Shown here: piece by piece, positions 2,146-44,047 of the stretch
How the letters are laid out: each line of letters opens with the position of its first letter
Position numbering within the stretch: position 1 is the stretch's first letter
Assembly: GCA_044892525.1 (NCBI GenBank)
Contig: CM097885.1
Location: 10,232,001 to 10,296,000 of the forward strand
Source: Schmidtea polychroa
Taxonomy: Eukaryota
DNA: 64,000 bases
Direction of reading: 5' to 3'
Position numbers and translations under genes: made by a program
The notes under the pieces: model-generated
Databases searched by the model: none
What the model saw: the letters and a program-made list of their open reading frames with translations, nothing else
What the model was told of the DNA's origin: nothing

Positions 2146-2163
2146 TGGGGGCTCAGCCGGGAT
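2146..2163 (+). promoter_or_regulatory. Primer binding site, tRNA-Pro
   Basis: TGGGGGCTCAGCCGGGAT, 16/18 identical to the MLV tRNA-Pro PBS TGGGGGCTCGTCCGGGAT; just 3' of the 5' LTR. Confidence 0.9.
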
Positions 2164-5034: not shown

Positions 5035-5903
5035 TGAGATTAAAATGAGTTGATTAAACCGGCCAAGGAGCCGATGGTAATTGAGTGAAATGATTTAAAT
5101 GAAAATAAAGGAGTTGAACAAACCGGCCAGAGAGCCGATGGTAAATAAAGGTGGATGTAGAGGTCGCGCGAACCAAAGCATCAATGATTAACTATGAAAT
5201 TGATTAAACTGAAATAGATTAAGTGCGATAAATATGTAATGAGTTGAGGAGAATTATGATAAAGCGCCGGCGCAAGCGAAAATGAAACCAGTTTTTGGAT
5301 GGGGAAAAGCGAACGAATAGATAGTAGTTGAATTATTGAATTTTATTTATTAATGATATGTTTATTTTGATATTTATGTGATTGATATTATATCTCTATG
5401 ATAATTATAAAAGGGATAGATAATTGATGCGACTATATAGATAATTGATACGAGTTATAGATAATTTAAAATCAACTTAAAATCAAAATGGGGCGAATAG
5501 CGAGAAGTGTAGAAAAGCTAGAAAATTTGAAGCGAAGGGACAGTAAAATAAAGGGAAAAGGAAAAGTAAATGAAGGGTTTAATAAAGAGAATTTATGATA
5601 TGTACTAGAGGTGTTAATTATTTTAGAATAAAGCAAACAATTCAGAAAGAAATCAAAGAAATCAAGAAAGCAATAGAAATCAAGAGATATAGAGAAATCA
5701 ATTAGAAGCGAAGAATCAAGGAAATTAAAAAAACCAAATCCAAGAAGAGTTAGAGAATCGTAAAGATTAAAGCGAGAAAAATACTTAGAAAACATCGAGC
5801 TCGATTGACAAAGTAGAAAATTTATCAAAGGATATTAAAAGGAGGAAAAATTGATAGCATAGCTAACCGAACGAGGCGAAAAAGTAAAGGAAACCTCAGT
5901 TTA

Positions 5904-7439: not shown

Positions 7440-10400
7440 CAGTGTGTTAACAACGACGGGAGTGAACCGATAATAAACAAGGAGATAAAAACGACAAAAG
7501 AAAATGAGATTGATCCACGAACAGAATTGAGCAGTGAAGAGAAAATACAATTGATTAAAGAATTTACCAAAGAGGAGAAAGAAAGGAGACAAAAGAGAGA
7601 TGAGAGTAAAGACGAACCAAAAAGCAATGAGATAGTTACAAAAAATCGAATTCAGAGGGTACTACTACAAAAAATCGAAGACAGAATCAAAAACGAAAAC
7701 CCTACATTAACTGAGGAACAAATAAAAGAAAAAGTGAAAGAGCATTGGTTCAGGAAAAATGAGTGGTTTGAAAAGAAGGAACCACATACCAAAGCTAAAA
7801 TAAACATGCTGAGACAAATGCGGAGCGATCAGACGGATCAGGAAGATGAGAAAAGTGAGGTGAGTAGCCTGGGAGGCGAATTATTTCAGTCAAGTGAGGA
7901 AAATAACGAACCGAAAACACCTCCAAACAGTGAAACACCTCAAAGTAGTGAGGAGAGTGAAAATGATGACATGAAATCAATGATAGAAAAAGATGAAGAA
8001 GAGATATTCGAGGAAATTCTCGACACAGTAACAGAAATAGAGCGAAATGAGAGCTACATCAACGAGTTAACATACAGAAAATGCTTAAAACTTATAACTC
8101 AAGTATACCAGTGTGAAGGAGGTATAATAACGGCAGCATGGAAAGATTTAGCAACAAAATATAAAGAGAAACTAAAGGAAGCAGGCCCAGATCAATATCA
8201 AGTAAGTATTCAACACCCCGAGATTCAGATACAGACTATTGAATTAAAAGGAACAAATACCGATGAACTGTACAACTGGGTACAGGAAAAAATGGGAACG
8301 AGCCATAAAAATAAACAATTATATGTCGATGGTTACAAAGTTAAAATGGGCATACATTTGGTAGATGCGATGATATGGCCAAACGAAACTAACATCTTAA
8401 CCTTAGAGAAAACCAGAGATGACGACTCGGTAGCAGAAATGTTCAAGAAAATCCAACAAGTGTTTAACAATGAAGTGGAACCAGAATTGGAAAAGATCGA
8501 ACGAAAAATAAGGAAAGAAAATCAAATAATCTTAGTCAAACAAGCTATCGATCAGACAAGGAAATACATTAATAGACTGAGAGAAAGATGGCCACAACTA
8601 ATGAAACAATTCGTTAAAGACGTACGAGACACGGAAATCATGAGATTCGAAGACAAACGAGCGACAGAATTGATATCTAAATACGGAGAATACGAGAGAA
8701 CCAAATGCGAGCATGAAACGATAAAAATAAAGGTGAAGTTGCCAAATGAAGAGAAACAAATAATAGAAGTTAATCCCGATTGCCAAGTTGACGAGTTAGT
8801 GCAAATCATAGATCAAGAGATCATCCAAAAAGCTCGAGAAAATAGTGAGGATGGAATGATCGAAGATGTGATAATAATGTACAACCGGCACATGCTAGAA
8901 AGAGGAGACCGAACTGTAATTTACGAACTGGGAATCTGGGAAGATGGAGCCGTCATCAATATAATCGCGATGGATGAACCATCTGGTGGGCACAAAAACG
9001 CCACGAAAACCGAGCAACAAATTAAAAGATTCCAATGGGGAATGAGGGCAAAGATGGATCGAATAATAGATATTTATAACCATTGGCTAAAGGATGATAA
9101 ACTAAAACTAGCAGCCTTCAATGACGAAGATTGCAAACTGATACCATGGAAAAAAGTGTGGATCGAAAGTGAAGCTCGATGGGAATGGGAGCAGCAAAAG
9201 TTGGAACCAAATTGGATAGATAATATACCCGAAGAGATCGCAGCAGTATGGGTAAGGGAGAAACCGATCGATACTTACCAGGATATATTACCACAAGAAT
9301 TCCAAAATGAATTACCATCAGGAGAAGATGAGGAGATACGAGAACCAGTAAGGTTAGCACCATTCACGTGGAAAATTGAGAATTGGATGGGAAAGATAAA
9401 ATCAGCAAAGGAAGAGAAAATCACACGATTAGTAAGTCCACCGTTCTACTCAGGATTAGGTGAGTACAAGATGAAATTGCGAATATACCCGAACCGAGAC
9501 GGGATAGGTAAAGGAAATTATGTGTCGGCATTCTTCGCCATCTGCAAAGGAAATTATGACGACAAGGTACCATGGCCGTTTAGCAGAAAAGTGACGATAG
9601 CAATCGAACCATTGAAAGATAGCCTTAACATGCACAAAGAAACATTGAAACCAGATCCAAGGAGCGCCTGCTATCAACGACCAACAACATCAGAAAATAT
9701 CGCTTCTGGGACACCTAAATTAATACGTCTAAGTTACATTGAGAATGAGCAGTCAAAATTTGTGAAAAACAATGCTATCCAGATCAGAGTAGAAGTTGAA
9801 ACAGAACAAGAAATGAACCAACGACTGAACATACCAGAAAATCAACCGAGAATCTGTATGATGAGGAGAAGAGTGCCTGATTCAGGACATCTACCAATAG
9901 ACGCAGATGCAGATGAGGAGGAAGCAGCAACATTGTTGGAAGCACAAAAATGTAAGGAGTTGATGGAGATATTACAAAACGGGGCGAAAAATCGTCGACG
10001 AGCGGTGGTAGAACTAGCAAAATGGATAGCCGAATCATGCAAAAGGATTCAAAACCTACGAAAAATCGTTAAAGCGATTGAAGAATATCGACGGGTGTAC
10101 GTATGGTACCCTGAACAATTTGGTGAAATTATCCGGAAATGGAAACAACAAGAGTGGGCCGAAAACTCACCTGAGAAATATCAATTAAAAATATTCATGC
10201 CAGATTTTGAACCAATGGAAAAGGAATTCTATACGACAGCTAAAGTCAGAGAAGTTAAAAAGAGAATACCTTATGAACTCCCATTCCACTTACAACACGA
10301 GGGACGATCATTAGACGACGATATTGAGATTGGTGTGACACCACTCCAAGGAGAAATTGTGAACAGATTAACGGTGAGTAAAATTGCAGGTAGAGAGCTA

Positions 10401-19400: not shown

Positions 19401-20192
19401 AGACGGGAAGTGCAGATAACTATTAACCTCAACAAGAAAGGTGAAGAGGTAATTACAGTCAAAAACCAAGAAGGAGAACCAATCATAAGGATATGTGTAA
19501 TGGATAAGACGGGAATAATCGACTGTACAACAACACCGATAGACAAAGGTGCAGACGTCAAAATGGAGACAGGAAAACGAAAAGAACGATACCAAGTATG
19601 TATCCTTAAGAAAGGAAGAGGAACCAGCGTATGTCAACCAATAACTCAACAAAAACCCCAATTAATAAACATACCGTGGATACCCCGAGATCAAGAAGGG
19701 GGAGAGAAACGGGAAAATCACAGTCACCTAACAGAAAAAGAGAAGGAGCGATTACATCAAGCATTCAAGAAAATCAAAGCACCAGAAACAAATACCACAG
19801 GTAGTACAATATTAACGACAGAAAAAACAAACAAGGGAACAACGATAATCACAAAGATGATATGGATAACTAGCGCGATAGTAAGCACGGTAATAGCGTT
19901 AGCAGTGATTCAATGGATAAGAACCACCAAAAGATGTAAACAAAAACCGAGAAACCGAAGAAAATGGCCCAAGGTAGAAAAATTTGAATACGGTATTCCA
20001 ACAGAAAATCTGAATCTAGAAGAATACGAGGTGGTAGAGGATCCCGGATCCAGCGGATTGTGGATGTCGGAACTACCAAGAATACCCACACCTAACGAAT
20101 GGACACACGAAGTCGATATATACCGACTAACGGACGAAAGATATGGGGGAATGCGCACGCTGCATTCCGGCCCCATGGCGACACTGGTATAA
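7440..20192 (+). CDS. pol: Giant Env/Pol polyprotein, in frame with gag after a single TAG
   Basis: Open from 7440 to 20192 in the gag frame; DTG protease, YIDD RT, DASG RNase H, HHCC and DDE integrase, plus extra domains. Confidence 0.95.
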   Translation, partial: QCVNNDGSEPIINKEIKTTKENEIDPRTELSSEEKIQLIKEFTKEEKERRQKRDESKDEPKSNEIVTKNRIQRVLLQKIEDRIKNENPTLTEEQIKEKVKEHWFRKNEWFEKKEPHTKAKINMLRQMRSDQTDQEDEKSEVSSLGGELFQSSEENNEPKTPPNSETPQSSEESENDDMKSMIEKDEEEIFEEILDTVTEIERNESYINELTYRKCLKLITQVYQCEGGIITAAWKDLATKYKEKLKEAGPDQYQVSIQHPEIQIQTIELKGTNTDELYNWVQEKMGTSHKNKQLYVDGYKVKMGIHLVDAMIWPNETNILTLEKTRDDDSVAEMFKKIQQVFNNEVEPELEKIERKIRKENQIILVKQAIDQTRKYINRLRERWPQLMKQFVKDVRDTEIMRFEDKRATELISKYGEYERTKCEHETIKIKVKLPNEEKQIIEVNPDCQVDELVQIIDQEIIQKARENSEDGMIEDVIIMYNRHMLERGDRTVIYELGIWEDGAVINIIAMDEPSGGHKNATKTEQQIKRFQWGMRAKMDRIIDIYNHWLKDDKLKLAAFNDEDCKLIPWKKVWIESEARWEWEQQKLEPNWIDNIPEEIAAVWVREKPIDTYQDILPQEFQNELPSGEDEEIREPVRLAPFTWKIENWMGKIKSAKEEKITRLVSPPFYSGLGEYKMKLRIYPNRDGIGKGNYVSAFFAICKGNYDDKVPWPFSRKVTIAIEPLKDSLNMHKETLKPDPRSACYQRPTTSENIASGTPKLIRLSYIENEQSKFVKNNAIQIRVEVETEQEMNQRLNIPENQPRICMMRRRVPDSGHLPIDADADEEEAATLLEAQKCKELMEILQNGAKNRRRAVVELAKWIAESCKRIQNLRKIVKAIEEYRRVYVWYPEQFGEIIRKWKQQEWAENSPEKYQLKIFMPDFEPMEKEFYTTAKVREVKKRIPYELPFHLQHEGRSLDDDIEIGVTPLQGEIVNRLTVSKIAGRELRGREIKQKSSTQQPGSLDTPEVPNAVSEVTIETTGEDEILDELQEIVEAGEIMRASQSGDLFIDEGEPTTDDLDGFVCAQRQPVETTEAETDLDNGERGANKDVTTTDEWSNWRVDPGATTSKDTTYNPPKRKDTGTAMDRRTRGRPKTDKAEIEPKSKVQAQMEQVKTKMDKLSALVKQVKVKTSVREQGTRWINDLLANMLALANPDVKRVMRKDNIPTEAKQLWAVLKPIIMKIMDNKIRLTLKDPVELRLIVEHLLSRSEDQNRFLVGLAYLVYNVIGQYKKRMPKYNATGYEFTVTEIIKRSIEPYILEQGGWSSFIESTGKKDQTEMMQAKLRDLLTEFEGTINMNDPRASRKGMNAIITTILIWMMCIKGTESFAVYDCDNIKIHEKYSLKDTEDCKAANPRKLQTVMASVTYNVYQEADFIKTMVQECTVTRKIFAHHCGSSSHSTIIEPGLESTVILLSREECEEGFRSGRIHLRQGIEIAAEPGKIKTTRVYTAGRITKGDGTCETGTYTLNGQLVSGVVVIESYEAKLEKYQGYFDPDTQAMKKYPSCLASDRSCSTGMSTLVYHADQKVCRLMLLKTAIFEEIQGKVYSEPKGEAERRAMEELRARKGFREDVITSKLESEVTPTAIISKDDGIGMRFIKNKMVSKCDEMVISTNYKGIYLSRRTLANAVGRLSEKDVKLYLYANNKMDFLYHRGLTSTEKVYHDLLRNDCLLNKEILRTKLAMAITNPDNAIPLLPLQEGYFGRIVGEVMYTYQCKKIMARLPENPIIPRDKCANELEIIHEGKPRFVQAVTRIMNPVGFQPNLFNCSNAYGPMYEKEDGQWVQFPSKTIVVTPKKFGLTELTTELEFKPIDVSQSGLYTPKDLESARAHMLFPAQRQAILSNIVIISGGNNYGESPNYELLLSPSHYQQATANMMKAMWGRFLIFGQMMAGILGIILIIQIVRVILTQMLACFDIYKRERKVNWKLAIGFLPFLAKTMVLHGHSKDIHRIKRLLKILTQMKGTDEEVGRKFKVIMRLEAERTQEKAKGTGKWKKWMNLRRDDDSDNDNDDFDDDDNNQGGAMLINKNTATWENEKMKPWGSPYSQAPYLQAPTNGPMRRPGTMRERIRMGTGRLPIPNIYPTAYEPNWAAMDPTMIKQAKSVEQEVETRTIAVLQTPAGPSLTITVEVNGIEMDAMIDTGANISAINMNMLPGRLWPCIEETTMDVITCSKQSIAVVGRVWSTIEYKGVKVTTYLAVIRQLSVSCIIGTDVMPELLKEIVIDLSSMKLKDKTGQICTMRTEVRCSEKMIIPARTQTICYVKVDNGAKGDMIFEPSQKFEKRRELPLAREIVSINEDNEIPINITNFDEEDKVIYENERLGKLTPMMNIELPEIKSEGADEKELWTIDSELLNEDEKEQLRQLLIEFKDIFAASDLDLGTSDVTQHIIPLTDETPITLRPYRLAEAQKTVAEEEVQKMLDAGVIEPSCSPWQFPVVMVKKKDGTQRFCIDYRRLNAVTKRDTYPLPDINEMLQMLHGAAYFTSLDLKSGYWQIKVKEEDREKTAFTIGKDLYQFKKMPFGLTNAPASFQRCMNFVTHGIKQCMVYIDDLLIYSGTFEQHLIDIRNVFVRLKQWKLKLKPSKCDWAKERVTFLGHIVSAKGKEPDPRNVEKIKNCPIPKTVTQVQEFLGLCGYYRKFIKNYATIAKPIQELTKKDTSFLWEREQQIAFESLRDKLIASPILIHPDFKKPFLLATDASGYASGAVLGQWDEEKRERVIGYYSKTFKKHEKNYSVTEREALAIIQAIKHFKYLLWGHEIIITTDHQPLVWLGQHKEASSRLMRWAMQLQEYSPYIKFKSGKANANADCMSRFVFEELMDHDVRRICMIIAEDIDFTNLKNEQKEDSELKLIIEFLEKNDMKIFNNDDRLKEHMEKNRHRYTIEKGWLLVMDGDKRLMCLPESRRKEIMIQYHDGKLGGHMSAKKTEARLKQKYYWPKMSDDVKEWIKNCLICATRRTTGSKLKPPLKPMPIPPEPMTMIAMDVVGPLPETNSGNVYILVITDYLTKFPEAFAMPDQKARTVARILVEEICCRYGTPKQILTDQGTNFMSEIINEVTNYFRIAKLRTSPYHPQTNGQTERFNGILIDMMSNYVSKHQKDWDEYIKLCLMAYRMSIHSATKMSPFKLMYGRECNMPMDLEYQPPISQYMEIDDYVTKFKERMQEIWKTAGMNIRFNQESYKELHDKKKNVQNHQFKVGDWVIIETPELIPGTTKKLQRNGRGPYEIIYVNENNARVKLVNNPLIRPIYVNTCRCKAVAKTATKDPETRKIITRSQTNVTTEPEVSGRLTRSQTRRIFMLRRETSSSANKGTETESEADAMARSQATWNMTVKIAREIVPEWANITNKYQVLGKLMRVAERYAKGRRNAEGVQVPTQMYELVRRLPIMFLTSDLSNNWPIHHAVKAGQEKRALEIIRIMENCKQSTNVKNSKGKTPLMKAIAIGASRKVLRELLRTGATLKEKDNKQRTILRYAVKSKRPSILSFITGNATTEEAEVLGQSIEPILEAIRGNLDRTAAMLIKWKQNELRAEVIDINQFQNNENIVLRSAIYSRPPMPKTIKAILQRNRTELTGNWWKCTKTHAMKKQLEILVWEWQRKQRKYQGTKEERESIHNDKKEIIKKYEEMIKAANVEDDIFGKTPGERNDDDDDDERMGDNDNNPEENDREQNPEGGETTGDDEELEEDEEDQCRGEDQGFDKTENKKRKSPLHSIVCRNQIQPILLQRIFIILTSICLTETKNMRIVREASQEGEVFMIKVSDYDGNAVGICVQLMEGTGVSCDFRSITKGKIFSSQKRDPRLCGDYDICKDISTEEMELERANETGVHFQLNILEEGIEIEDKGSRSITHVCIREDRDICIVTDMTQHHKFFWGEVKPNTPTVVCAGTQGIVVCKGTRTAPRKDKPKSMAMKQDPLRGITTKKPNKSVSTKTATEQNQTELITTTTWINEVIKDERREVQITINLNKKGEEVITVKNQEGEPIIRICVMDKTGIIDCTTTPIDKGADVKMETGKRKERYQVCILKKGRGTSVCQPITQQKPQLINIPWIPRDQEGGEKRENHSHLTEKEKERLHQAFKKIKAPETNTTGSTILTTEKTNKGTTIITKMIWITSAIVSTVIALAVIQWIRTTKRCKQKPRNRRKWPKVEKFEYGIPTENLNLEEYEVVEDPGSSGLWMSELPRIPTPNEWTHEVDIYRLTDERYGGMRTLHSGPMATLV
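8196..8972 (+). other. Two ubiquitin-like (beta-grasp) domains in the polyprotein
   Basis: YQVSIQHP..IELK..TDELYNWVQEKMG...QLYVDG and IKIKVKLPNEEKQIIEVNPDCQVDEL...IIMYNRHMLE...YELGI..GAVINII follow the ubiquitin pattern. Confidence 0.55.
9360..9800 (+). other. TRAF-type MATH domain in the polyprotein
   Basis: FTWKIEN...SPPFYS...YKMKLRIYPN.DG.GKGNYVSAFFAICKGNYDDKVPWPF. Confidence 0.9.
10179..10376 (+). other. Third ubiquitin-like domain (degenerate)
   Basis: YQLKIF...TAKVREVKKRI...LQHEGRSLDDD resembles ubiquitin TIENVKAKI...LIFAGKQLEDG. Confidence 0.45.
10980..11375 (+). other. Bcl-2-like domain
   Basis: BH2-like IEPYILEQGGWSSF preceded by a BH1-like NRFLVGLAY in a helical region. Confidence 0.7.
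11481..13385 (+). other. env: Envelope-like glycoprotein (chuvirus-G / class III-like) embedded upstream of the protease
   Basis: Signal peptide MNAIITTILIWMMCIKGTES then FAVYDC; Cys-rich ectodomain; GEVMYTYQC and SGLYTPKDL motifs; TM FLIFGQMMAGILGIILIIQIVRVIL. Confidence 0.8.
13920..17320 (+). other. Aspartic protease, reverse transcriptase, RNase H and integrase (with GPY/F module)
   Basis: MIDTGA at about 13970; PFGLTNAPASFQ; YIDD at 15192; TDASG; TDHQPL; H..H..CLIC; DVVGP; TDQGTNF; ERFN; GPY at about 17208. Confidence 0.98.
17727..18240 (+). other. Ankyrin repeats C-terminal to integrase
   Basis: WPIHHAVKAG, NVKNSKGKTPLMKAI...LLRTGA, KDNKQRTILRYAV. Confidence 0.85.
18702..20192 (+). other. 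Second predicted type-I membrane protein at the polyprotein C-terminus
   Basis: Signal-like ILLQRIFIILTSICL; repeated (I/V)C-x7-10-C units; Thr-rich stalk; TM MIWITSAIVSTVIALAVIQWI at 19857 followed by a basic stop-transfer stretch. Confidence 0.6.
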
Positions 20193-20338
20193 CGAGAAGA
20201 GGAGTTGCTGTAAATAATGTATAAATGAAATGATAAAAGTAGTGATAATAGTAGTAGTATGTACAAATAAAAATAGAAAATTAAAACAATATGTAGAAAA
20301 TCAAAAACAAGTATGATGACCATGTATTATAAATAGGA

Positions 20339-20779
20339 ATGAACCAGAGAAACGAAGAGCAAGAACACCCAAATGGGATACCACATGTTGTTGAAGTAAG
20401 AGAACAGCCGTTAATGAATGTACATCCAGTAGACATGATGGAAATGAACGTGCCAAACCAGCCGAGTCAGCCAACAGGATCCATGTGGAGGGCACAGTGT
20501 GAATTAATGACCCAATTGACAAATCAAACTCAAGAGCAAACGGCGTTGATAGAGAGTATTAATAGAAATGCAATATATATTACAAAAATAGAGGAACAAC
20601 ACCAAATAATCGCGCAACTAGAATACAATAACAATCAGTTAATAAGCCAAATCAGATGGCAAGCGGAAGAAATTAGAAGGTTACACGAAAATCGACAACA
20701 TGATGATATTGCCAGTCTAGTCGAATGGATGACCGGGCTACCAGGAACTGGGGAACCGGACTCGACGGTGGATGTATAG
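20339..20779 (+). CDS. Accessory coiled-coil protein, unknown function
   Basis: 146-aa ORF with an acceptor just before the ATG; Q/E-rich heptads. Confidence 0.7.
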   Translation: MNQRNEEQEHPNGIPHVVEVREQPLMNVHPVDMMEMNVPNQPSQPTGSMWRAQCELMTQLTNQTQEQTALIESINRNAIYITKIEEQHQIIAQLEYNNNQLISQIRWQAEEIRRLHENRQHDDIASLVEWMTGLPGTGEPDSTVDV

Positions 20780-20866
20780 GAGAGAGAGGAGTAAAATGTA
20801 AATAACCTTGTAAATAAATAGAGTATAACCAAGTAGAATCCCAAGATTTAAAGTTATCATTGTAGA

Positions 20867-22291
20867 ATGCAAAACAAAGCAGAAGAAAACCGGAGAGAAG
20901 CAGAGGAACAAAAGATTAACTATGAGTTGATGAGAAAATACCAAGCCGAGCCGGACGAGTTCGAAGAGAGATTATTATGTGCCGATACAGCATGTAGAAG
21001 ATTATTAATTGGAGCAAGTCAAACTCGATGCGGGTGTAGATTGTGCCGAGGGTGTGATATAAGATTAGCCAGACTAAAGCGAGAAACTTGTCCAGGATGT
21101 GGAGAAGCATTTAAGTTGGTTCCCACTGGTACGATACCGGATAGAGCAATGAACCGAGAAATCAGAGAAGTGAAAATAAGATGCACCCAAAGGTCATGCG
21201 AATGGACAGGTCGAGTAAAGGAGTTAAGAGCCCACACAGACGTATGCGAATATTTAGAATCGGAATGCGAAGCATGCACGGTAAAGTTTTTACGAAAAGA
21301 GAAAACCAAACATAAAGGAGAATGCGAAGCGCGAACGGAAAAATGTGAATTTTGCGGAGAAACTGCTAATTGGAGAGAGATCGAAATGGAACATCGAAAC
21401 GCAGTAGAAAGACGGATTTGCGACGAATACACAGGGAGATGCCCAAACGAGTGTGGAGAGATTAACGACGTCAGATTAAATGAACATTGGGAGATATGCA
21501 CGAGAAAAGCGATAAAATGCCCAATGGTGACATTCGATTGTAGAGTACAATTACCAACAGAAGAAATGAAGAAGCATGTGGAGGAGAATACATTCGAGCA
21601 CATGCAAAAGATGATGAGAGCAATAGAGTTAACAGCAAGGGCAATCGAAGACGTCAAAGACGAACTCAAATCACATAAAATCATGATAAAAGAAATGCTG
21701 AGCTCACAGGAAAGCTTCGAAAATACGAGAGAAGCCGTAACACAAAGGATGTTGAAATTAGACGACAAATTAGTCGAAGTAACTAAACTACAAACCAAAT
21801 GGATGGCAAAGGAACTGACAACAGAGGAACTACCAATACTACCATACATGTGGAAAATCCAAGGAATAACGGAAATAATGGAGCAAGCAAAGCAAGGAAT
21901 CCAGACAACGATAGTGAGCAAACCATTCTACGCCAAGAAACATGGATACAAGATGAAATTGAGATGGTTTCCAAATGGTGAAGGAAAGTTCAAAGATCGG
22001 TGCATGTCCATATATATGCAAATTTGTAAAGGAGATTTTGACGACCTAATAGCATGGCCATTCCGACATAGATTAAAAATATCTCTCTTAGGAGCAAAAA
22101 AGACACATATAATGTGTTTTCGAGCATCCAGTCCAGCAGGGAATAAACCGATTACAGAGGTTAATCCTGCGGTAGGAGTAGCAGAGTTTATGCAGCTATA
22201 CCAATTTAATGAAGGGTCCTACATAGAAAAGGACACTATATTCTTCCTAATCGAACTAGATGAGGAAGGACCAACAATAGAAATACGATAG
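20867..22291 (+). CDS. Full-length TRAF-like protein (RING, TRAF zinc fingers, coiled coil, MATH)
   Basis: C..C..CGCRLCRGC...CPGC RING; CEWTGRVKELRAH..C and CEFC zinc fingers; YMWKI...SKPFY...GYKMKLRWFPNG...KGDFDDLIAWPF MATH. Confidence 0.92.
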   Translation: MQNKAEENRREAEEQKINYELMRKYQAEPDEFEERLLCADTACRRLLIGASQTRCGCRLCRGCDIRLARLKRETCPGCGEAFKLVPTGTIPDRAMNREIREVKIRCTQRSCEWTGRVKELRAHTDVCEYLESECEACTVKFLRKEKTKHKGECEARTEKCEFCGETANWREIEMEHRNAVERRICDEYTGRCPNECGEINDVRLNEHWEICTRKAIKCPMVTFDCRVQLPTEEMKKHVEENTFEHMQKMMRAIELTARAIEDVKDELKSHKIMIKEMLSSQESFENTREAVTQRMLKLDDKLVEVTKLQTKWMAKELTTEELPILPYMWKIQGITEIMEQAKQGIQTTIVSKPFYAKKHGYKMKLRWFPNGEGKFKDRCMSIYMQICKGDFDDLIAWPFRHRLKISLLGAKKTHIMCFRASSPAGNKPITEVNPAVGVAEFMQLYQFNEGSYIEKDTIFFLIELDEEGPTIEIR

Positions 22292-22431
22292 ACGGATAGA
22301 AGGGAACTGTAAATATTTTGTAAAAACGATGTAAAGTAAAAATAAAGTTATTGTATACAGTAAAGTAACTTGCCAAAACCATAAAAATTAGAAAAAGAAA
22401 ATGTAAAAAGAAATGATGAAATTTATTATAG

Positions 22432-23610
22432 ATGATTAATCAAGAGAAACCGAATATCCGAAAGAAAACGATCACAATGAGAGAGGAAGAGGACAATATG
22501 TCACCTAGAGAAAGAGTGAAGGATGCGGAAGTCAACAAAACAAAACCAAGTAGTTACACATATTATCGAAGAAGGGGAAACGATTATAATTTGGTACATG
22601 AAAATTTGAAACTGGGAGATAATGAACAATTCAGATGTGAGAACCAGAGATATCTGTCATTTGAACATCAGACCATTTTCACCAAGGAACAGAGCCGAGC
22701 GCTAGCACGCGACGGATTTTTCTTCTCCGGAAAACCAGAGATACCCGATCAAGTAACGTGTCGTTTCTGTAAAGGGAAATTAGCAGAATGGAAAAAAGGA
22801 GAGCACCCAAAGGAGGAACATCGTAAACGATTTCCAACTTGTCTATTCGTACTGGGATTCGATGTACACAACAAACCGGAAATCAAATATGAAGCCTTGG
22901 AGAAATTGAAAACTGAAGACGAAAAAGGAGGGAAAATGAGCATCGCGATAACCAGAATCGTTGATGAGTATGTTCCAACTTGTGAAGGGGAATTCCTCAC
23001 GCAAATAGCAGATAATAGAATGAAAACGTTCGGAGATGATACGAGAGGACCTGAATTAGCAATAAGAGGGTTCTACCTAACAGAAAATCAAATACTAAAG
23101 TGTGAAAGATGCGAAAGTCAACAGAGATTACCAGAAGAAGGCATACCAGAAATTAGACATCAAGCATGGTGCCTGTACCACAACGAACAAGAAACCGAAT
23201 ACCCAGAAGTGCTAGTAACAGAGGAAGAGGTTGACGAAGTGGTAGACAAACCCAACATGTGCAGAGCGTTGAAAGCAGCCGGAATAGGCACGACAAGGGC
23301 AAAGAACATGATTAGAGAGAGACTACAGAAAAATGTACATATACCAACAACAACGTACGATATGATCAGAGCGATAACTCAGTATAGAGAAAAACCTGAA
23401 ACAAAAATAAAAGAAGAATCAATGGTCAAAGCAGCTATCTTACGAGATATCAAATGTACTATGTGTTGGGAGAGGAGTGTAGAAGTTATTCATATGCCAT
23501 GCGGACATTTGATCGCATGTGCCACATGTAGTAGAAAAGTAAAGGAATGTCCGATGTGCAGACAGAGGATTGCGCAGCGAATCAAAGGATTCCGCTACGC
23601 CGATCAATAA
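22432..23610 (+). CDS. Inhibitor of apoptosis (BIR-BIR-RING)
   Basis: BIR1 LARDGFFF...VTCRFC...W...EHRKRFPTC; shorter BIR2 RMKTF...LAIRGFY...CERC...H...C; C-terminal RING CTMC...PCGHLIACATC...CPMCR. Confidence 0.93.
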   Translation: MINQEKPNIRKKTITMREEEDNMSPRERVKDAEVNKTKPSSYTYYRRRGNDYNLVHENLKLGDNEQFRCENQRYLSFEHQTIFTKEQSRALARDGFFFSGKPEIPDQVTCRFCKGKLAEWKKGEHPKEEHRKRFPTCLFVLGFDVHNKPEIKYEALEKLKTEDEKGGKMSIAITRIVDEYVPTCEGEFLTQIADNRMKTFGDDTRGPELAIRGFYLTENQILKCERCESQQRLPEEGIPEIRHQAWCLYHNEQETEYPEVLVTEEEVDEVVDKPNMCRALKAAGIGTTRAKNMIRERLQKNVHIPTTTYDMIRAITQYREKPETKIKEESMVKAAILRDIKCTMCWERSVEVIHMPCGHLIACATCSRKVKECPMCRQRIAQRIKGFRYADQ

Positions 23611-23692
23611 CAACAATTAAAATTCCGTGTATAAAGTGTAGATAATAAATGTATGAAATAATAGTAGTAGTAATAGTGTAACTATTTAGACA

Positions 23693-25291
23693 ATGAATAA
23701 AGAATCACAAACCTATGTGGAAACCGAGATGCAACAACTCGAACAGTACAAATCCATCATACAAACATACGAAGCAGAAAGAGTAAAGAGAGAAATAGAA
23801 ATGTACAAAACCATGTATGAGAAAAAGCAACAAGAGTTAGAAGTGGAGAAGGCGGAAGCACTAGCAACAAAGGAGGAGTGGATGAAACAGGTAGAGGAAT
23901 TAACCGAGGATGTGAGAAATACCTCAACATACCAAGAATTGGAGGAAGAGCTCTCGAATTTACGAACTCAGCGGATTATGGAGATAGTTGGGTTATGCGG
24001 AGAGATAATAATGCAGAAGGCACAAATTAGGGAAGCAAAGGAGCAATACGAGGAGGAACAGCGTAAAACGGAACGAATAAAACTACAAGCGCAACAATGG
24101 AAACTAAAGTACGAAACCCTCCAGACAAGGCAGAATGATAGTCACGAACATCAAATACGGAATTACAAGGCCGAACTAGAAGAAGTAAAGGGCAAATGCG
24201 CAATGATGAAAGAAAAATGGGAAAGATGCAAAAAGACCCTAAACGAAGTCAGAGGGCAAGGGAGGAGAACACCGCATAGAGAACCAATTGTTAAAGATAA
24301 CGTATTAGAGCGAATTAACACACAAATAAAGATACAAGCCCAGAAATGGAAGTATAAATACCTAGGAAGTCAAACTCAAGTGCTCTATTGGAAAATCAGT
24401 AGCAAGGAACAACTGCGATTACGAAAAGCAGACCAAGAATTTTACGAAATAAGGGCTACACAGCGAGAAGAAGAGGAAGTAGAGTGGAGAAAACGACAGC
24501 AGAAATTTGAGGAAACCGAAGAGTGTCTCAAGCATCAAGCCCGAAAATGGAAAAAGAATTGGAAAGAAACCAAAGAGGAGTTAAGACAGTTACCAATGAA
24601 ACTGATGGAAAGAGACGAATTTAAAATGTGGGAAACGATAGAAAACCAAAAAGATGAGATCAGCCGATTGAGTAGAGAACATAGAATCAAGACGCGGACC
24701 AGCGACGGTAGACGGAGAGTCATAAAGAAACAGACTCGAGAAATAAGAAGGTATGAATACCAGGAAAAGAGATGGGAACAACAATTGACAGACCAAGATC
24801 GACAGATCCGACAATTACAAACAGAGGTAGAAGAAGCTAATCAAGAGATGAACGGATATAAAGGTATGTACACCCAAAGGGATGTGAATTGGAAGCATCA
24901 GATTGCGCTTAATGCGAAATGTAGAGAGGAGTGCGAAAAGGCAATTCAACAAGCCAAACAGGAAACCAAGATAATAAAACGATGCTTCGAAGAAAATGAA
25001 GCGAATCTGAGAGCAGAAATCGAGAAGTTGAAAATGCTTGAAAAAACCCAACGATTGGAAGAGGAATTGGATGAGATGATAGAAAACGAAAGTAGATTAA
25101 CGTTTCTGTTGGATGAAGAAATAAACATCTCAACGGAATTGCGGGAGGAAGTAGATCGGTTAAGAAGACAACCACCAATACTATTAATGCCACTCTACCC
25201 GTTCCCATTACAAGTGCCACAGCCTGCCGAAGTCACAACAGATGAAGGCTTCGAACAAAATAACGAACAAAATAACGCAACATGGAATTAG
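23693..25291 (+). CDS. Long coiled-coil accessory protein
   Basis: 532-aa E/K/Q-rich heptads with internal repeats (K.QA.KWK.KY); no ATPase motifs. Confidence 0.8.
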   Translation: MNKESQTYVETEMQQLEQYKSIIQTYEAERVKREIEMYKTMYEKKQQELEVEKAEALATKEEWMKQVEELTEDVRNTSTYQELEEELSNLRTQRIMEIVGLCGEIIMQKAQIREAKEQYEEEQRKTERIKLQAQQWKLKYETLQTRQNDSHEHQIRNYKAELEEVKGKCAMMKEKWERCKKTLNEVRGQGRRTPHREPIVKDNVLERINTQIKIQAQKWKYKYLGSQTQVLYWKISSKEQLRLRKADQEFYEIRATQREEEEVEWRKRQQKFEETEECLKHQARKWKKNWKETKEELRQLPMKLMERDEFKMWETIENQKDEISRLSREHRIKTRTSDGRRRVIKKQTREIRRYEYQEKRWEQQLTDQDRQIRQLQTEVEEANQEMNGYKGMYTQRDVNWKHQIALNAKCREECEKAIQQAKQETKIIKRCFEENEANLRAEIEKLKMLEKTQRLEEELDEMIENESRLTFLLDEEINISTELREEVDRLRRQPPILLMPLYPFPLQVPQPAEVTTDEGFEQNNEQNNATWN

Positions 25292-25444
25292 TCGGAGAGA
25301 GGTTGCCTGTAAATAAGAATGAAAAAAAAAAAAAAAAAAAAAAAATCATAAAGCCAAAACCAAATAAAAATTAGAAATTACAAAACCAAAAATTCAAAAT
25401 AAAAGGGAGACGAAAGGAAAAATGATGTGTATATTTTTGTAGAT

Positions 25445-26210
25445 ATGAATTATTTAAAAGACAGAATCAACGAGTAACGTAAGAAAATCAATTGACCAAC
25501 CTGAACAAAGCCAGAATACGATACCAATCAAACAAGAACCGATGAAATATTATAGTAATAAATGGAGAGTCAGCAAGAAGTTGTTCAAAACAAAAATCGC
25601 AAATCAAAATGTAGAGATTACGAGATTGAGACAGCATATTGTTCAATCAAGACGATTAATAAACACTGTCAAGCAGGAAATTTTGAGGGAAATAAATGAA
25701 TCGAAACTAAAAGAGACGGAAAATAAAAACTTGAGACAAGAGATAGTAGAGTTAAGAGCTCAGGCAGTAATCGAAGACTATTGGAAATCAGAAACAAGGA
25801 AGTTGAAAAAGATTGTGAATATCGACCAAGTTTATATCGAACAATTGGAAGCACAATACGCTTATGCAAAAACGAGAATGCGGGAAAGTAAAAAGGTCGA
25901 CAAGAGAAACGCAAGACTCAAGGAGGAGATCAAGGAACAAAGAGAGGAAACAGAAAAACAATGGAAGTTGAAAGAGAATTATCGGAGAATTTTAAATCAA
26001 AAACGACGAAGCATGCAAGCACTGCAGACGACAATGACCATCAGACAGAGAAAATGGAAAAGTGAAGAGAAGCGATTACAAGAAATACCAGAATTAAAGA
26101 GACAGTTGATGGCAACGCAACTCGAAGTAATAAGGATGAACGAGTTGAGTAAAAGACGAGCACCTGAACCTCCCGTAAAATTAAGGGATGAGGTCGGTGG
26201 CTCCCAATAA
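25445..26210 (+). CDS. Coiled-coil accessory protein; probable +1 frameshift near 25455-25459 (open from 25542)
   Basis: TAG|ATATG at 25440-25447; removing one A from TTAAAAG joins this ATG to the 222-aa ORF. Confidence 0.7.
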
Positions 26211-26286
26211 ATGAGATAAAATAACTGTGTAAATAAATTGTAAATAAAGCCAAGTAATTATTATTAACGTATATGTATATGTAAAG

Positions 26287-27273
26287 ATGAGAAGCCTAAC
26301 CGTGGTGATAATTATAATGACAATGCCCAGAATCCTGCAAGCTGAAGAATCAATGATCAGATGCCAGAAAGAATACCCATATCGCAGAGAAGATAGCACC
26401 TGTAGTAGCTTTAAATCAATCTGTGAAAAACCCAATGAAGAATGCGAACAAATCGAGTTGCAATGTTCGCAATGTCCACAAACAACTGGAAGTTCGACGG
26501 AAATGCAAATGGCTCAGACAATGAAAACAATATTAGAACAAGAAATGAAAGTTATCAGAACCCAGATAGCAACATTAGCCAAACAATTCCAAAGCCAGAA
26601 ATCAAAGAAAGAAACCCAAACGGATCCGGCCGCAATGAGAATGATGGTAATAATATTAGAGGAAATAAAACAACAGGTAACAGCAACCGCCAATGGACGT
26701 TCAAGCAATTGCGAAATAGTAGTAAAATCTTTAGAGGAAATGAAAGGAAAAATAACTTCCATCATCAAAGAGGAACCCAGCATTAAAAATGAGGTAACGA
26801 AAACCTTGAAAGAAATGACAAAAGAAGTCCTAACTACCATAAACAAAAACCCAATGAACTCCGAGAAGATGATTAAAACCCTGGAGGAAATAAAGAAAGT
26901 TGTCACCTCGGAAGAAAACAAATTCAACAAACCCGAAAAATCTGAAATTACAGATACAACCCAATTGGGAGAAATGATAAACAAACCCAGAGTAGTAGAA
27001 CTAAGAGAATCTGAACCCCTCACAATATTGATCCTATTAGCAGCAAGCCTAATGATAAACATTACCGTACTGAGCCTGATTGCACTCAAACCCAATTCCA
27101 GTAAAGCAAGAAACAAAACCCTCAAACTAAAAGAACAATCAAAGAGTATTCGTATCCCAATGGAAGAACAGCTAATCCAAACAACGAACCAACCAAGATA
27201 CTTCAAATCTTCCCCAAACATCGAAACCAGAGCCGTCATCGAGACGAGATCCCGAACAACAGAATTCTATTAG
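26287..27273 (+). CDS. Type-I membrane protein: signal peptide, Cys-rich N-terminus, repeated helical stalk, TM and cytoplasmic tail
   Basis: MRSLTVVIIIMTMPRILQA signal; six Cys; ~23-aa repeats K(S/T)L(E/K)E(M/I); TM LTILILLAASLMINITVLSLIAL. Confidence 0.8.
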   Translation: MRSLTVVIIIMTMPRILQAEESMIRCQKEYPYRREDSTCSSFKSICEKPNEECEQIELQCSQCPQTTGSSTEMQMAQTMKTILEQEMKVIRTQIATLAKQFQSQKSKKETQTDPAAMRMMVIILEEIKQQVTATANGRSSNCEIVVKSLEEMKGKITSIIKEEPSIKNEVTKTLKEMTKEVLTTINKNPMNSEKMIKTLEEIKKVVTSEENKFNKPEKSEITDTTQLGEMINKPRVVELRESEPLTILILLAASLMINITVLSLIALKPNSSKARNKTLKLKEQSKSIRIPMEEQLIQTTNQPRYFKSSPNIETRAVIETRSRTTEFY

Positions 27274-29099
27274 TGTGACATCATGACAGTAAAAACATTT
27301 CACGACATTATAAACGATAAATCATCCTGATCGAACAATTGATTTCAAAGACTGAGACTACGATTAATGACACTGATTCTTGAGCATGATAATTTTATTT
27401 TTATGTGGGCCGACCTCGGTCGTTCTTTTTCTTCATCTTTCAACCCATCTGTAAAATGTAGTGTAATAGTAGCATTTTTATGTATGTGGGTATTGAGGTC
27501 ACGACCCTGTAGCTCGTGGACCCAATTTGCATGTAGGCACTTGTAATATAGTGCAAGTATTCTGAAAATTAATCTTATTCATCTTTGGATTTAAATTGCG
27601 GGTCGCAATTTTATGGGCCCCCGAGTGTTTTATGTTGGGCTAGAACTGATTTCTAGACCCAAACTACTAATTGTGACTGAAACGTGCAGGTACACAACAT
27701 GTAAAAAGCAAAAAGTATAGTTAAATATTAAAATACACACCAAATAAACAATATTAACTAAAGGAGAAAGCAACAAAAACATAAACAAAGAAATTAAATA
27801 AAATTATACAGAAGCAAGAAGTGATGCAAAAACCTAACTCAAAAATAATCAAACAAACATAGAATTACCAAAAGCAAACTCGAATAACTGAAAAGACGAT
27901 AAAAATAGTAAAAAATTCCAGAAAAACCCAGAACATTCTATAAAATGGCGATGACCATCACAAAAGTCATCTAGAACAACAAAAGTTAAGGAAAATAAAT
28001 GAATTAGTATTAAAAATAAAAAATCTCAAAAAGAAATTCATAAAAACATCAGTTAAAATAAAAATTAAATTAAAAGTAAAATAGAATGTTCTGGAACCGT
28101 TCCAAATCCATCATGGACGTCAAATTAACAAAAAATAATTAAAAAATAAAAATATAAAAATAAAAACAAAAATTATGGCACAAAAATCGCCATTAAAAAT
28201 AGCAAAATCGTAAAATAGAAAATTCTGGAATAAAAAGAATTCGAGTTTGTTTTAACGCATCAATACATACACGTGTACAAAATAGGTATATATACTGACA
28301 CGTTTCAGGCACAAGTAATCATTATTTTGTTTATGCCAATATTTTATTAGAAATTTTCCGAAAGTTATTAGTAAGTAGATTTTTCTTTTGTTATTCGATG
28401 TTATCATGATTAATGTAACTATTTTAATGTAGATTAATATCCATAAGATCAATTTCTTTTTATGTTTATCTTTTATTAAAAATTTTTGTTTGAATACGAC
28501 TGATCAGCGGCGTCGCAGTGCGTCTCTGTTCAGTCCTGCATTTGATATTAACAATTTTTGAAACATGCAGACATGCAATATTCTATATATATATTTTTTT
28601 TTTGTTTGGTCATCGGAGGTCGGCCACTTCATGGTTCTACCATGGAGTTGTGTCGATAAAACCCCTCCGCTATGGCTCTATATGCTTTATTTATCGGTCG
28701 ACAGTGATGTTTCGACTCAACACAACAGTAGGGCTTGTCGTAGCGGTCACAGTGGGGCCGTGTAAGCAAGCATTCTTCCCGAGTACAAGCAAACATATTT
28801 AATTTCAACATTAAAAATCGTAGACAATAGGGTACACTAAGGTCGTAATCGAGTAGATCTCAGACCCAAATTGAACACAGCAATTACAATTCAGCTAATG
28901 TAGTCGGTTAAGACCTCTCCACTTACACGTTTGTCGAACCTCATTGAGAAATAATTTTTCGTATCAGTGTAAATGTCTCTCTCGAAATTAACCGTAATGA
29001 TGCTCACGAAGGAGTTCGACAAGTGTGAATCGTAAAATGAACTATATACTCTCCTGTTACACTTAAACATCAGGCTATAAATGTATAATGTTCCTAAAC

Positions 29100-30400: not shown

Positions 30401-31339
30401 CCAAATTCTGAATTCTAAGTTTATATTTCGTATATAATTGATAAATGACGAATGTATAAAATGTACAGTTGCGTATGCGAAATTAGCTAGGTTATAAATA
30501 ACCCCTACGCCAAAATTATGGAGTATAATGACAAACATAAAGGAGAAGCACGCCCGACCTCTAGATCGGAAACCGCAGTGAAGCTTGACGATAATTTAAT
30601 TAAAACTAATTTAACATCCAGTCGAAAGAGAGAATAATATTTAACATTTATTTTACAACATCAAGGTTCTAGTGGGCTAAACCAGGATTGCCGAGAGAAG
30701 TTCATTGTAGGCTTGAGTCTTGCGTGCTCCAGCTGTCTCCGCTCGTTGCTGGGAATTGCCAATAGGATTGACAGTTGCGGATAATTCCTAAACTTTACGA
30801 ATTTACTAATTTTAAATTTACAGTCTAACTTACTTCGAAGGATCCAGATGAATTGCAACACAGAAGGGAATGAATCTAAAAATCTAATATACCAAAATAA
30901 ACTAAATTTATCAGGAAAAAGTTTTTTTTTATATTTAAAAGCCTTATAATTAAATGTATTTAAAATTTACTATTCAAAACCATTGTAGTTTACTTTAAAT
31001 TTGACCTTATTATGATTGTTACGATAAAACACCGTAAGATATGCTAGGGAAAATTAATCGAGGTGATTAATTGGTAATTTCCGCGTAAGTTAAATTTTAA
31101 TGTATAGTGGAAGACTTGAATTTTAATTTAAGCAAAAGTTGAGGGTACCCTTTTAAGTACAATTTAAGTTAATCTGATTAATTGTTTAAATTATGAACAT
31201 TTGGAGTTTGCTTCGTATTGTAAGCCAATTTTTTTTTTGATTGTGTGTGGTTTCATATTAGCCCGGGAGCGTTGTAGCAGAGGTAAACGTTCTCGTTTGA
31301 ATTGTGATAACCTTATTAATCCTTACTACCCAAATAGAT

Positions 31340-31705
31340 ATGTCACACTCAGACGACTCCAACGATGATGAAGGCTACAGACAAATGATCACCCGGCTCC
31401 GGTCCCGGTACGTCTGGCATCACATCCATCGGTGGGGCCAGGGACGGGACTTAGATTGTTCCAACCAAGTAATCCGGACGGGCCCCGAAGTAGATGCCCC
31501 GGCGTGGGTAAAAGTAGAACCCACCAACAACGTGCTCCGGGAAGCCCGCGATCGAGCGGCCGATGAGGTAGTAGAGGCCCAAAAGCGGCTGAGGAGACTC
31601 GAGCTCCAACTCAAGGCCGACACGTTGGGGATAGCTCTTGAAGAGCTGGAGGAGACCGATGCCCCTCCACGAAAACGGGGGAGGCCCCGCAAGAACCCGG
31701 CCTAA
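31340..31705 (+). CDS. AT-hook protein, 3' LTR copy
   Basis: Same as 674-1039 except for one G>R change. Confidence 0.65.
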   Translation: MSHSDDSNDDEGYRQMITRLRSRYVWHHIHRWGQGRDLDCSNQVIRTGPEVDAPAWVKVEPTNNVLREARDRAADEVVEAQKRLRRLELQLKADTLGIALEELEETDAPPRKRGRPRKNPA

Positions 31706-31994
31706 CTTATCGACAATCGCGGCCTGAATAAAACGATTTTTACTGACCTGATTTAGTGATATTTTAGTAACCTAACGAATTGTATTTCTCTTTTGTTTAT
31801 CAAACATAATCTATCGTGTAGTGATGCAATAAATTATATTTTAGTTATTTATACTTTGGGCTTTATAGCTAATGGGGCGTATTCATAATTGAGGTGACCC
31901 TTTTCTCATCACCCACTTACAAATTCCATGCATGTACTCTAACCAACTTTGCGCACCAGAAGGCGAATGAGGGGATTTATTATTATTTTCTTCA

Positions 31995-32429
31995 GTGTAC
32001 CAGTTATTGGAAAACCTACGAAAGGACCGCGAACAGGCCCAGCAACAATCCGAGGGTCTCCGAGGTCGGGTCGAAAAACTCAAGCTGAAGTATCGAGAAC
32101 TCCAAAGTACGTGGTTCAGTCCGGCCGACATGAAAAAACAAACTACGCGCATCTCACAACTCCAGACCCAGGCGGAGCAAGATCAGCTCGAGATCCGAGC
32201 GCTGAAGCTACAAGTGCGCTCGCTCGAGAGTAAATTGAACGAAAAATTTGTCCAGGACACCCTTTGCGAGCAGATTCGTCCACTTTCCGTAGAGTTGGCC
32301 CGGATATACCCACCGGCCCAGACGAACAAGCCGAAACGCAAACGGTTAGGACGGAACACCCGAGAGAAATTGAAAAGGGCCTGGCTGGCTGAGCAGGAGA
32401 AAGCGAAAGGGCCTGAAGTCAATCCATGA
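31995..32429 (+). CDS. Coiled-coil/basic protein, 3' LTR copy
   Basis: Identical translation to 1329-1763. Confidence 0.55.
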   Translation: MYQLLENLRKDREQAQQQSEGLRGRVEKLKLKYRELQSTWFSPADMKKQTTRISQLQTQAEQDQLEIRALKLQVRSLESKLNEKFVQDTLCEQIRPLSVELARIYPPAQTNKPKRKRLGRNTREKLKRAWLAEQEKAKGPEVNP

Positions 32430-33078
32430 TCTTGGGAGGCGTTCGAGAGTGCGTGAACAATCTATGTAATATGGTGGTGGCTTAATAAATGAGTCTTGTT
32501 ATTTAATGAGTATGAGAGTGAACTTTGCTGTTGTCTAAAACAGGATGGTTGGCGGGAAGGCGCTTGGAAAAACAATCTCGATGAGGGACCGAAATAAATC
32601 GGACACGTGCCTTCTATCGGCGTCCGTGAACCCATAGAGTGCTCGACAATTACAGTGCTTGGCGCGCTCACTTTTTGCGAGTACTCAACCCCTTGGTACA
32701 GTACCAACGTTGATTGCTCAACGGGTACCAAGAGGAAAACAATGTTGTATTCTGGGTTACGCTGGTAACAGCACTTAAACATTCAACCACCAGTAACCCA
32801 CCAATAATAATTATATTGACACTAAATGTAATGGGGAAGGCGTAATGACATTAACATTTTTGTTTCTTGGGTAGGAATAGTGTGACATATTGGTTAATCA
32901 ATACCAGTAAAATGGTAATACTGATTATGGGAAGTGCTCAATGATTTGATCAGTTGATATATAACAATTCGTCCAATAATCAATAATAATCATCCTCTTC
33001 ATCACCAGCAGAAATAATTAAGACAAAACAAACTTTATTAAAAGATCTAATATAAAATGAATGATTGAAAATAAACAA

Positions 33079-43957: not shown

Positions 43958-44047
<90 letters not shown>

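Follow-up and report, generated by a model that had tools for sequence, protein, structure and literature searches.

In each of the six spacers of its accessory-gene array, a Burro-family giant gypsy retrotransposon of the planarian type carries a short TGTA-type motif at a fixed distance from the preceding stop codon. The element, found in Schmidtea polychroa, lies at positions 1-32803 of the window, i.e. the 64,000 nt analyzed here (GenBank assembly GCA_044892525.1, contig CM097885.1, positions 10,232,001 to 10,296,000 of the forward strand); all coordinates are counted from its first base. Six + strand accessory open reading frames (ORFs), A1 to A6, are located downstream of the long ORF1, and each of them begins directly behind a candidate splice acceptor. 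This fixed pattern of motif and acceptor suggests separate messages for the accessory genes, each controlled by a host RNA-binding protein, most likely Pumilio. The best reading of the sequence, to which we give a probability of about 0.45, is a cassette mRNA whose 3' untranslated region (UTR) would open in a PUF-type site just outside the terminating ribosome. If true, a PUF-type site at a fixed distance from six unrelated stops would be a rare natural case of selection on how far a 3' UTR element lies from the terminating ribosome. The spacer anatomy also supplies exact coordinates for candidate splice acceptors, 3' ends and a regulatory site, together with candidate host factors that can be knocked down by RNAi, a routine technique in planarians.

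Position and shape of the spacer motif

An initial annotation, made from the letters alone, had listed eight motif copies, and all are present on the + strand: TGTAAATA at 20209, 20797, 20809, 22308, 25308, 26228, and 26239, and TGTAGATA at 23637. Its three GA-rich runs are there as well. Purine runs of 9-12 nt occur within the first 17 nt of 4 of the 6 spacers, a length of 9 being reached by 5.9% of coding 17-mers. It had placed the first copy about 16-27 nt after the stop; this range is accounted for by the A3-A4 spacer, in which the copy at +18 is TGTATAAA (7 of 8 letters) and the perfect one lies at +27. The spacers are 76-153 nt long with 20-29% GC, and their motif features, including matches to the Pumilio response element (PRE), are as follows.

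20194..20204, + strand: purine run past the ORF1 stop
20209..20216, + strand: PRE-type 8-mer at +17; further TGTA at 20218 (+26)
20266..20271, + strand: AATAAA of the ORF1-A1 spacer
20797..20818, + strand: two PRE-type 8-mers (+18, +30); purine run 20780-20791 upstream; the second overlaps AATAAA 20813-20818
22308..22346, + strand: PRE-type 8-mer at +17; purine run 22298-22306 upstream; TGTAAA at +28 and +39; AATAAA at 22341
23628..23657, + strand: TGTATAAA at +18, perfect UGUANAUA at +27 (23637), TGTA at +40; AATAAA at 23644; spacer without a purine run
25308..25315, + strand: PRE-type 8-mer at +17; purine run 25294-25302 upstream; AATAAA at 25363 and 25398
26228..26248, + strand: two PRE-type 8-mers (+18, +29), each overlapping AATAAA; no purine run

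Taken in order, the six spacers have their first TGTA at +17, +18, +17, +18, +17, and +18. The ORF ends of the six genes that bear the motif are unrelated, and their stop codons are divided between TAA (3) and TAG (3). An unbiased test, in which the best k-mer in any 2-nt window anchored to the stop was compared with 1000 dinucleotide-shuffled sets, bears out the positional enrichment implied by the initial annotation: no shuffled set reached the observed level for k=4 or k=6; one did for k=5, and two did for k=3. Anchoring to the ATG of the next gene gave nothing comparable (96-1000 of 1000 shuffled sets reach the level), and an ATG-anchored element was rejected on this test. At control stops, i.e. 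the ends of open frames of at least 40 codons, TGTA at +17/18 follows 2 of 133 on the host + strand, 0 of 119 on the host - strand, and 3 of 228 on the - strand of the element, compared with 6 of 93 on its + strand. The distance of the motif has a standard deviation of 0.5 nt from the stop, 18 nt to AATAAA (15-57 nt), and 33 nt to the acceptor (58-134 nt).

The module is non-random and strand-specific, with 24 spacer TGTA on the + strand against 3 on the other. Plus-strand TGTAAATA occurs 7 times in about 685 nt of spacer and 0 times in 20,373 nt of element coding DNA; elsewhere we count 0 in the 5,530 nt past the last ORF, 2 in the 3,980-nt 5' leader, and 3 in 31,197 nt of host sequence. Over the whole window the excess is small (24 TGTAHATA vs 13.96 expected; 1 of 100 shuffles as high). 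Every spacer has a perfect UGUANAUA copy at most 35 nt from the stop, and in 5 of 6 a second TGTA follows 9-12 nt after the first.

Among the 24 spacer TGTA, an A at position 6 is found in 21 (P = 2e-4), an A at position 8 in 19 (P = 4e-3), and a T at position 7 in 12 (P = 0.01), whereas at positions 5, 9, and 10 A is no more frequent than its 51% share in the spacers would predict, and position 5 varies among A, T, G, and C. The six first copies have A6 in 6, T7 in 5, A8 in 6, A9 in 4, and A10 in 1. For comparison, TGTA in host and long terminal repeat (LTR) sequence is followed by A6 in 33-45% and by A8 in 30-35%. At the level of sequence, the conserved letters are those at positions 1-4, 6, and 8, with none beyond, which is the profile of a PUF-type 8-mer and not of the bare UGUA bound by CFIm. 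The Pumilio-type 8-mer of the initial annotation fits at just those positions that separate PUF from CFIm.

No TGTA stands at +17/18 behind A6, the upstream RING ORF, the two LTR frames, or the stop at 7439; the upstream ORFs that have no motif have AATAAA at +14 to +55. The initial annotation had noted neither this absence behind the last ORF nor the acceptor signals at the other end of the spacers. Behind A6 the first TGTA comes at +177 and the first AATAAA at 27743. The seven TGTA that start there (27450-27545) include no perfect 8-mer and have a pyrimidine tract upstream; the cluster resembles the spacer modules, and several hairpins follow it (27480-27670, z -1.3). A further local feature is a stretch of some 24 consecutive A immediately after the A4-A5 motif (25321-25346), which could be either slippage or a captured poly(A) tail that marks an mRNA 3' end.

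A shared RNA structure was rejected, as the spacer folds differ and Rfam gives 0 matches at E up to 1 within 19900-28500. The idea that the motif is a disguised AATAAA was also rejected: only 1 of the 6 first copies continues as AATAAA.

The initial annotation had the module duplicated with each gene, and this stands in part. With all TGTA 8-mers masked, the 15 spacer pairs were compared against 300 shuffles (a MAFFT alignment of the six spacers was unreliable). The ORF1-A1 and A3-A4 spacers share an exact 15-mer (20245-20259 = 23658-23672; 0 of 300 shuffles), and the A2-A3 and A4-A5 spacers have about 23-25 nt in common (1 of 300). The match of a third pair (P = 0.04) amounts to A-rich noise, and 12 of the 15 pairs show nothing. 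At the sequence level these matches show that spacers were partly reused as genes were added, i.e. that duplication took part. The linkers between stop and motif have a mean identity of only 0.33 (0.19-0.56), so plain copying does not account for the fixed spacing.

Candidate splice acceptors and the proposed cassette messages

Analysis of the other end of the spacers reveals an AG 0-3 nt before the ATG of all eight accessory starts, TAG in seven of them, behind sequence with 73-91% A+T. Two of the eight, those of the LTR ORF and the upstream RING ORF, were checked after the idea had been formed. At control ATGs, TAG is found in the same position in 3-9% and AG in 17-30%, and the three ORF1 ATGs tested have no acceptor-like AG. 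The candidate acceptors of the array, and two candidate introns in the LTR, are the following.

20334..20336, + strand: candidate acceptor TAG, 2 nt before the A1 ATG
20863..20865, + strand: candidate acceptor TAG, 1 nt before the A2 ATG
22429..22431, + strand: candidate acceptor TAG, directly before the A3 ATG
23687..23689, + strand: candidate acceptor TAG, 3 nt before the A4 ATG
25440..25442, + strand: candidate acceptor TAG, 2 nt before the ATG at 25445 (A5)
26284..26286, + strand: candidate acceptor AAG, directly before the A6 ATG; TTAAC 23 nt upstream
423..598, + strand: candidate leader intron in the LTR, 176 nt, GTAAGT ... TAG; sequence pattern only
617..671, + strand: second candidate leader intron, 55 nt, GT ... 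TAG, with its end 2 nt upstream of the LTR ORF 674-1039; pattern only

The spacers contain 21 ATGs (19.6 expected), which rules out scanning re-initiation at the downstream ORFs. Because of these upstream ATGs, all of which splicing at the AG would remove, the downstream genes probably need splicing, from an LTR leader or a spliced leader (SL). No GTRAG donor is present in any of the six spacers. Donor-like sites occur in the LTR at 372, 423, and 617, the last being, from its sequence, a candidate common donor. Given the acceptor pattern, separate cassette mRNAs made by splicing at each acceptor are likely, and the splice could be either cis, from an LTR donor, or trans, from an SL. The LTR also has two open frames, 674-1039 and 1305-1763 (copies at 31340-31705 and 31971-32429), with AATAAA at +22 and +55, respectively; the LTR may hold a spliced, coding leader.

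Complex retroviruses and adenovirus late units splice a common leader to alternative acceptors just before accessory ATGs. The element resembles them in having a candidate acceptor just before each accessory ATG, and differs in that each cistron carries a repeated, stop-anchored 3' module. In flatworm operons, gaps of at most 300 bp, typically about 100 bp, are resolved by SL trans-splicing, and one acceptor often serves both cis- and trans-splicing (PMC12582326, PMC8629364). The array is similar to flatworm and nematode SL operons in its same-strand genes 76-153 nt apart and in AAUAAA followed by an AG acceptor with no donor between. It is unlike them in that it sits inside a retroelement whose genomic RNA must stay whole and whose LTR donors give a cis route, and in having a UGUA module upstream of AAUAAA. 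The flatworm SL ends in AUG (PMC12582326), and this AUG would be in frame at 4 of the 8 acceptors, which does not decide between cis and trans.

In the mechanism we propose, the 3' end of each spacer would be a splice acceptor (A/T-rich tract, WAG, 0-3 nt, ATG), and each accessory gene would become the first ORF of its own mRNA, by cis-splicing of an LTR leader or by SL trans-splicing. The 5' end of the spacer would open a 3' UTR, with the stop, 16-17 nt, one to three UGUANA(U)A sites 9-13 nt apart, and then AAUAAA. The spacer AAUAAA sites would be weak or optional, because full-length genomic RNA must pass all six of them. The motif would be read on mature, translated RNA, since its distance from the stop varies by no more than 1 nt, whereas the letters of the linker and the rest of the spacer vary freely. 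A nuclear or DNA-binding factor cannot measure from a stop codon; a ribosome can. The terminating ribosome shadows about 15 nt, which would make +17/18 the nearest free position, the first outside the ribosome. We consider it somewhat probable, in view of this shadow, that the site is read at translation termination.

The reader of the site would most likely be a PUF protein (Pumilio), a prediction from the motif's letters to which we give slightly less than an even chance. It would set the output of the cargo mRNAs, including those of the IAP-like (inhibitor of apoptosis) A3 and the TRAF-like A2, through deadenylation and translational repression; alternatively, in long read-through messages, PUF binding might change how nonsense-mediated decay (NMD) judges termination. 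The PRE is UGUANAUA, and in Drosophila up to three clustered PREs in a 3' UTR strengthen repression (PMC11182014). The element shares with this system a sense-strand 8-mer UGUANAUA, downstream of stops, clustered, in an AU-rich context and here upstream of AATAAA. It differs in the fixed +17/18 from the stop, in many flanking copies that keep only UGUANA, and in being borne by a retroelement, with binding as a prediction. An extended version of the idea is doubtful: modular cassettes of acceptor, ORF, stop, and PUF site might act as a termination-coupled PUF switch with a fixed clearance of 16-17 nt, by which the host's post-transcriptional network would time anti-apoptotic and TRAF-like proteins, and might shield nested, long-tailed messages from NMD.

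Several observations weigh against a PUF-read cassette. Drosophila PREs lean toward the 3' ends of UTRs, and their location was uninformative in the model of that study (PMC11182014). On Pumilio's side there is no known reason for an exact +17/18, and the purine runs of 4 of the 6 linkers have no explanation in a PUF model. One of the six first copies is imperfect (TGTATAAA); a perfect UGUANAUA is seen in only 9 of the 24 spacer TGTA, one of which is an acceptor; and the first site is partly paired in the local folds of 2 of the 6 spacers. We have one copy with six spacers, of which, judging by sequence, 2 of 15 pairs are related after correction, so the six are not fully independent. Sequencing data, covered as contigs from 4 of 15 runs, also speak on this side: 0 of the 15 listed (of 45) contig joints have GT..AG ends, and 0 of the 24 listed (of 853) loose contig ends lie at an acceptor or carry a leader or poly(A) tail.

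Alternative origins and functions of the motif

Another function for the motif, that of a CFIm-type poly(A) enhancer, had been suggested in the initial annotation, and it comes out of the present analysis weaker. Here, tandem UGUA pairs would bind the CFIm25 dimer and activate the AAUAAA of each spacer, the genes being alternative last exons or operon cistrons and the stop spacing coming from compaction and common descent. All six spacers do have UGUA upstream of AATAAA, five of them as tandem copies; the last ORF, A6, which is able to use the LTR signal, has no module. The spacer lengths fit flatworm operon distances (PMC12582326, PMC8629364). Planarian CFIm25 is present (PMC5068929). The same paper reports that UGUA is not enriched upstream of poly(A) signals in S. 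mediterranea and that CFIm59/68 were not confidently found. A nuclear factor is blind to the stop codon, yet the spacing is fixed to the stop and not to AATAAA. CFIm25 recognizes UGUA only, which does not demand the extra conserved letters A6 and A8. AATAAA itself is barely above chance, and the regions downstream of it have 10-37% T. As such, we regard a poly(A) enhancer as unlikely.

Rather unlikely, too, is a relic of a polypurine tract and LTR-start junction, copied with each addition of a 3' gene, or a set of additional sites at which a 30-kb genome would prime its plus strand, in neither case acting on mRNA. A purine run, 1-5 nt, and TGTA follow one another in 4 of the 6 spacers; under a stricter rule they do so in 3, and that rule finds a single site in 12.4 kb of pol and none in 31 kb of the host + strand. 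Two pairs of spacers have 15-25 nt in common, and about 300 nt past its pol stop a distant gypsy element (L001; 32% integrase identity) shows a purine run, 5 nt, and TGTAAC, unconfirmed as an LTR start. However, the two spacers that have no purine run still have the motif at +18, the motif occurs in tandem, and a neutral relic should not hold the length of its linker while linker identity drops to 33%. The likely LTR start of the element, TGATG at 27822, and its LTR end, CCCACCA, are both unlike the motif. That start comes from the only purine-tract plus TG candidate between A6 and the known part of the LTR:

27810..27823, + strand: candidate purine tract and LTR start; the 5' LTR start lies outside the window

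An LTR start at 27822 would give a 3' LTR of 4,982 nt (27822-32803). The motif may also have arisen at such a junction and been recruited at the RNA level later.

The Rous sarcoma virus stability element protects stops from NMD, and a non-PUF, termination-linked stability element of this kind would shield the long-tailed stops of nested mRNAs that end together in the LTR. The site follows exactly the six stops that have ORFs behind them, including ORF1 of the unspliced RNA, it is missing after the last ORF and after the upstream ORFs, and its spacing is anchored to the stop. We nevertheless hold this to be quite improbable, since the column profile fits a PUF 8-mer, AATAAA is present in every spacer, and the viral element is long and pyrimidine-rich.

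Internal promoters at the DNA level, with each spacer driving the next gene, are more improbable again. GTAAATA, a forkhead-type site, is contained in 7 copies; TATAAA, a promoter consensus, occurs in two modules, with TGTATAAA at 20218 and 23628; and the spacers are A/T-rich. Against such promoters, no motif is anchored to the next ATG, the variable position 5 breaks the forkhead core, the strand bias is strict, and the spacer ATGs with an acceptor before each start point to splicing. Base composition alone, an objection raised at the outset, has next to no chance of being right: bare TGTA anywhere in a spacer is at chance level (4.8 of 6 expected) and AATAAA in 6 of 6 is a weak excess over 3.6, but position (0 of 1000 shuffled sets, k=4) and the 8-mer go beyond chance, and composition was rejected as their source.

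The element, its coding content, and other copies

The element exceeds 30 kb with its LTRs, of which the 5' one is cut by the window start; positions 1-2137 recur at 30663-32803 with 99.77% identity, the copies being 30,662 nt apart. Its features, all on the + strand, are the following.

1..2137, + strand: 3' part of the 5' LTR, ending ...CCCACCA; truncated by the window start
2146..2163, + strand: primer-binding site
2860..3342, + strand: upstream accessory RING ORF (Pfam zf-C3HC4_3, 3.4e-12); TAG directly before the ATG; AATAAA at +14
5817..7439, + strand: gag-like open frame (Ty3 capsid, CCHC knuckles)
7806..20192, + strand: rest of ORF1, a 4,128-codon frame (Pfam and translation)
20339..20779, + strand: accessory ORF A1, 146 amino acids; no family found
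20867..22291, + strand: accessory ORF A2, TRAF-like (zf-TRAF and MATH)
22432..23610, + strand: accessory ORF A3, IAP-like (Pfam BIR 1.3e-15, RING 3.2e-12)
23693..25291, + strand: accessory ORF A4, 532 amino acids; no Pfam family
25445..26210, + strand: accessory ORF A5, in this copy disrupted close to the 5' end
26287..27273, + strand: accessory ORF A6, the last
30663..32803, + strand: part of the 3' LTR matching the 5' LTR (sequence identity)

Burro/GYPSM1 elements are giant gypsy-like LTR retrotransposons of planarians, longer than 30 kb with an internal region of about 25 kb (PMC6431247). Their order of gag, CCHC, MATH, env, protease, reverse transcriptase, RNase H, integrase, and ankyrin is found here, interrupted by a stop at 7437-7439 within ORF1; Pfam identifies MATH, an env-like viral fusion protein, protease, reverse transcriptase, RNase H, integrase, and ankyrin in the remainder (7806..20192). 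Pfam lists none of the BCL2-like, SUMO-like, or dUTPase-like motifs of ORF1 at E 0.01; some of these were originally found in Burro with HHpred (PMC6431247). BIR-bearing and other accessory ORFs are a further likeness, here represented by A3, and Burro1 carries a BIR and RING protein, B-IAP (cited in PMC13465017). The three published BURRO1 probe and qPCR oligos (PMC8532177) match 0 of 3 within 3 mismatches across the window (best 5), and we therefore file the element under the Burro family and not as Burro1. In protein searches, A3 matched three molluscan IAP-like proteins that cover 12-29% of it, A2 had no matches, and A1 had no Atlas match at 0.9 or above.

This copy is damaged in at least two places, the ORF1 stop at 7437-7439 and the 5' end of A5, whose acceptor-proximal ATG (25445) is out of frame with the open frame 25458-26210. 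For the stem-cell control proposed in the initial annotation, nothing in the window shows it; BURRO1 RNA is intestine-enriched when silencing fails (PMC8532177), and a protective effect of B-IAP on the stem cells of planarians is reported (cited in PMC13465017).

Other copies lend weak support to the conservation that had been proposed: among the entries listed (40 of 812 and 12 of 81), 5 substitutions in the ORF1-A1 spacer and 4 spacer indels spare the first motif and the linker length. Of the 24 listed records from presumed RNA runs, five span a spacer; as the RNA label is a guess, this implies no transcript structure. The listed part of degradome table S6 of PMC5068929 has no tag recognizably from the spacers. 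No relatives of A3, A4, or the reverse transcriptase with flanks were found in viral contigs. The only gypsy relatives are distant ones, L001 (32%) in metagenome contigs and L007 (42%) and L008 (37%) in genome contigs, and the stretches read of L001 and L007 have no accessory arrays. Among IMG/VR contigs, 5 fit a degenerate version of the spacer pattern (L002-L006), probably by chance. We found no description of these spacer signals in the literature covered; the Burro1 paper (Lee et al. 2026), Grohme 2018, and Jurka 2007 are outside that coverage and may describe them, and the portions of the Burro texts that were covered (PMC6431247, PMC13465017) have nothing on accessory-ORF expression or spacer signals.

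Several minor features complete the description. The usual gap between LTR and primer-binding site is 0-2 bases; here eight bases (2138-2145) separate the LTR end, as set by the 3' copy, from the primer-binding site, which we take to be of the tRNA-Pro type. The long 5' leader contains tandem 131-nt repeats and a diverged repeat of about 115 nt (4720-5076 and 4139-4540). Two antisense open frames on the - strand, 26514-27239 (241 amino acids, over A6) and 21019-21849 (276 amino acids, over A2), are probably a by-product of the A-rich coding strand. In run X8, contig depth in the middle of the LTR (28871-31125) is about 20x below that of the internal region, contig depth not being copy number, a hint that LTR middles differ between subfamilies. 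The distant relative L007 has a eukaryote-type gypsy pol frame of more than 2,100 codons (331-6657) on a contig filed in a bacterial metagenome-assembled genome, probably as host contamination. Finally, the host DNA of the window holds a near-perfect 96-nt palindrome at 43958-44053.

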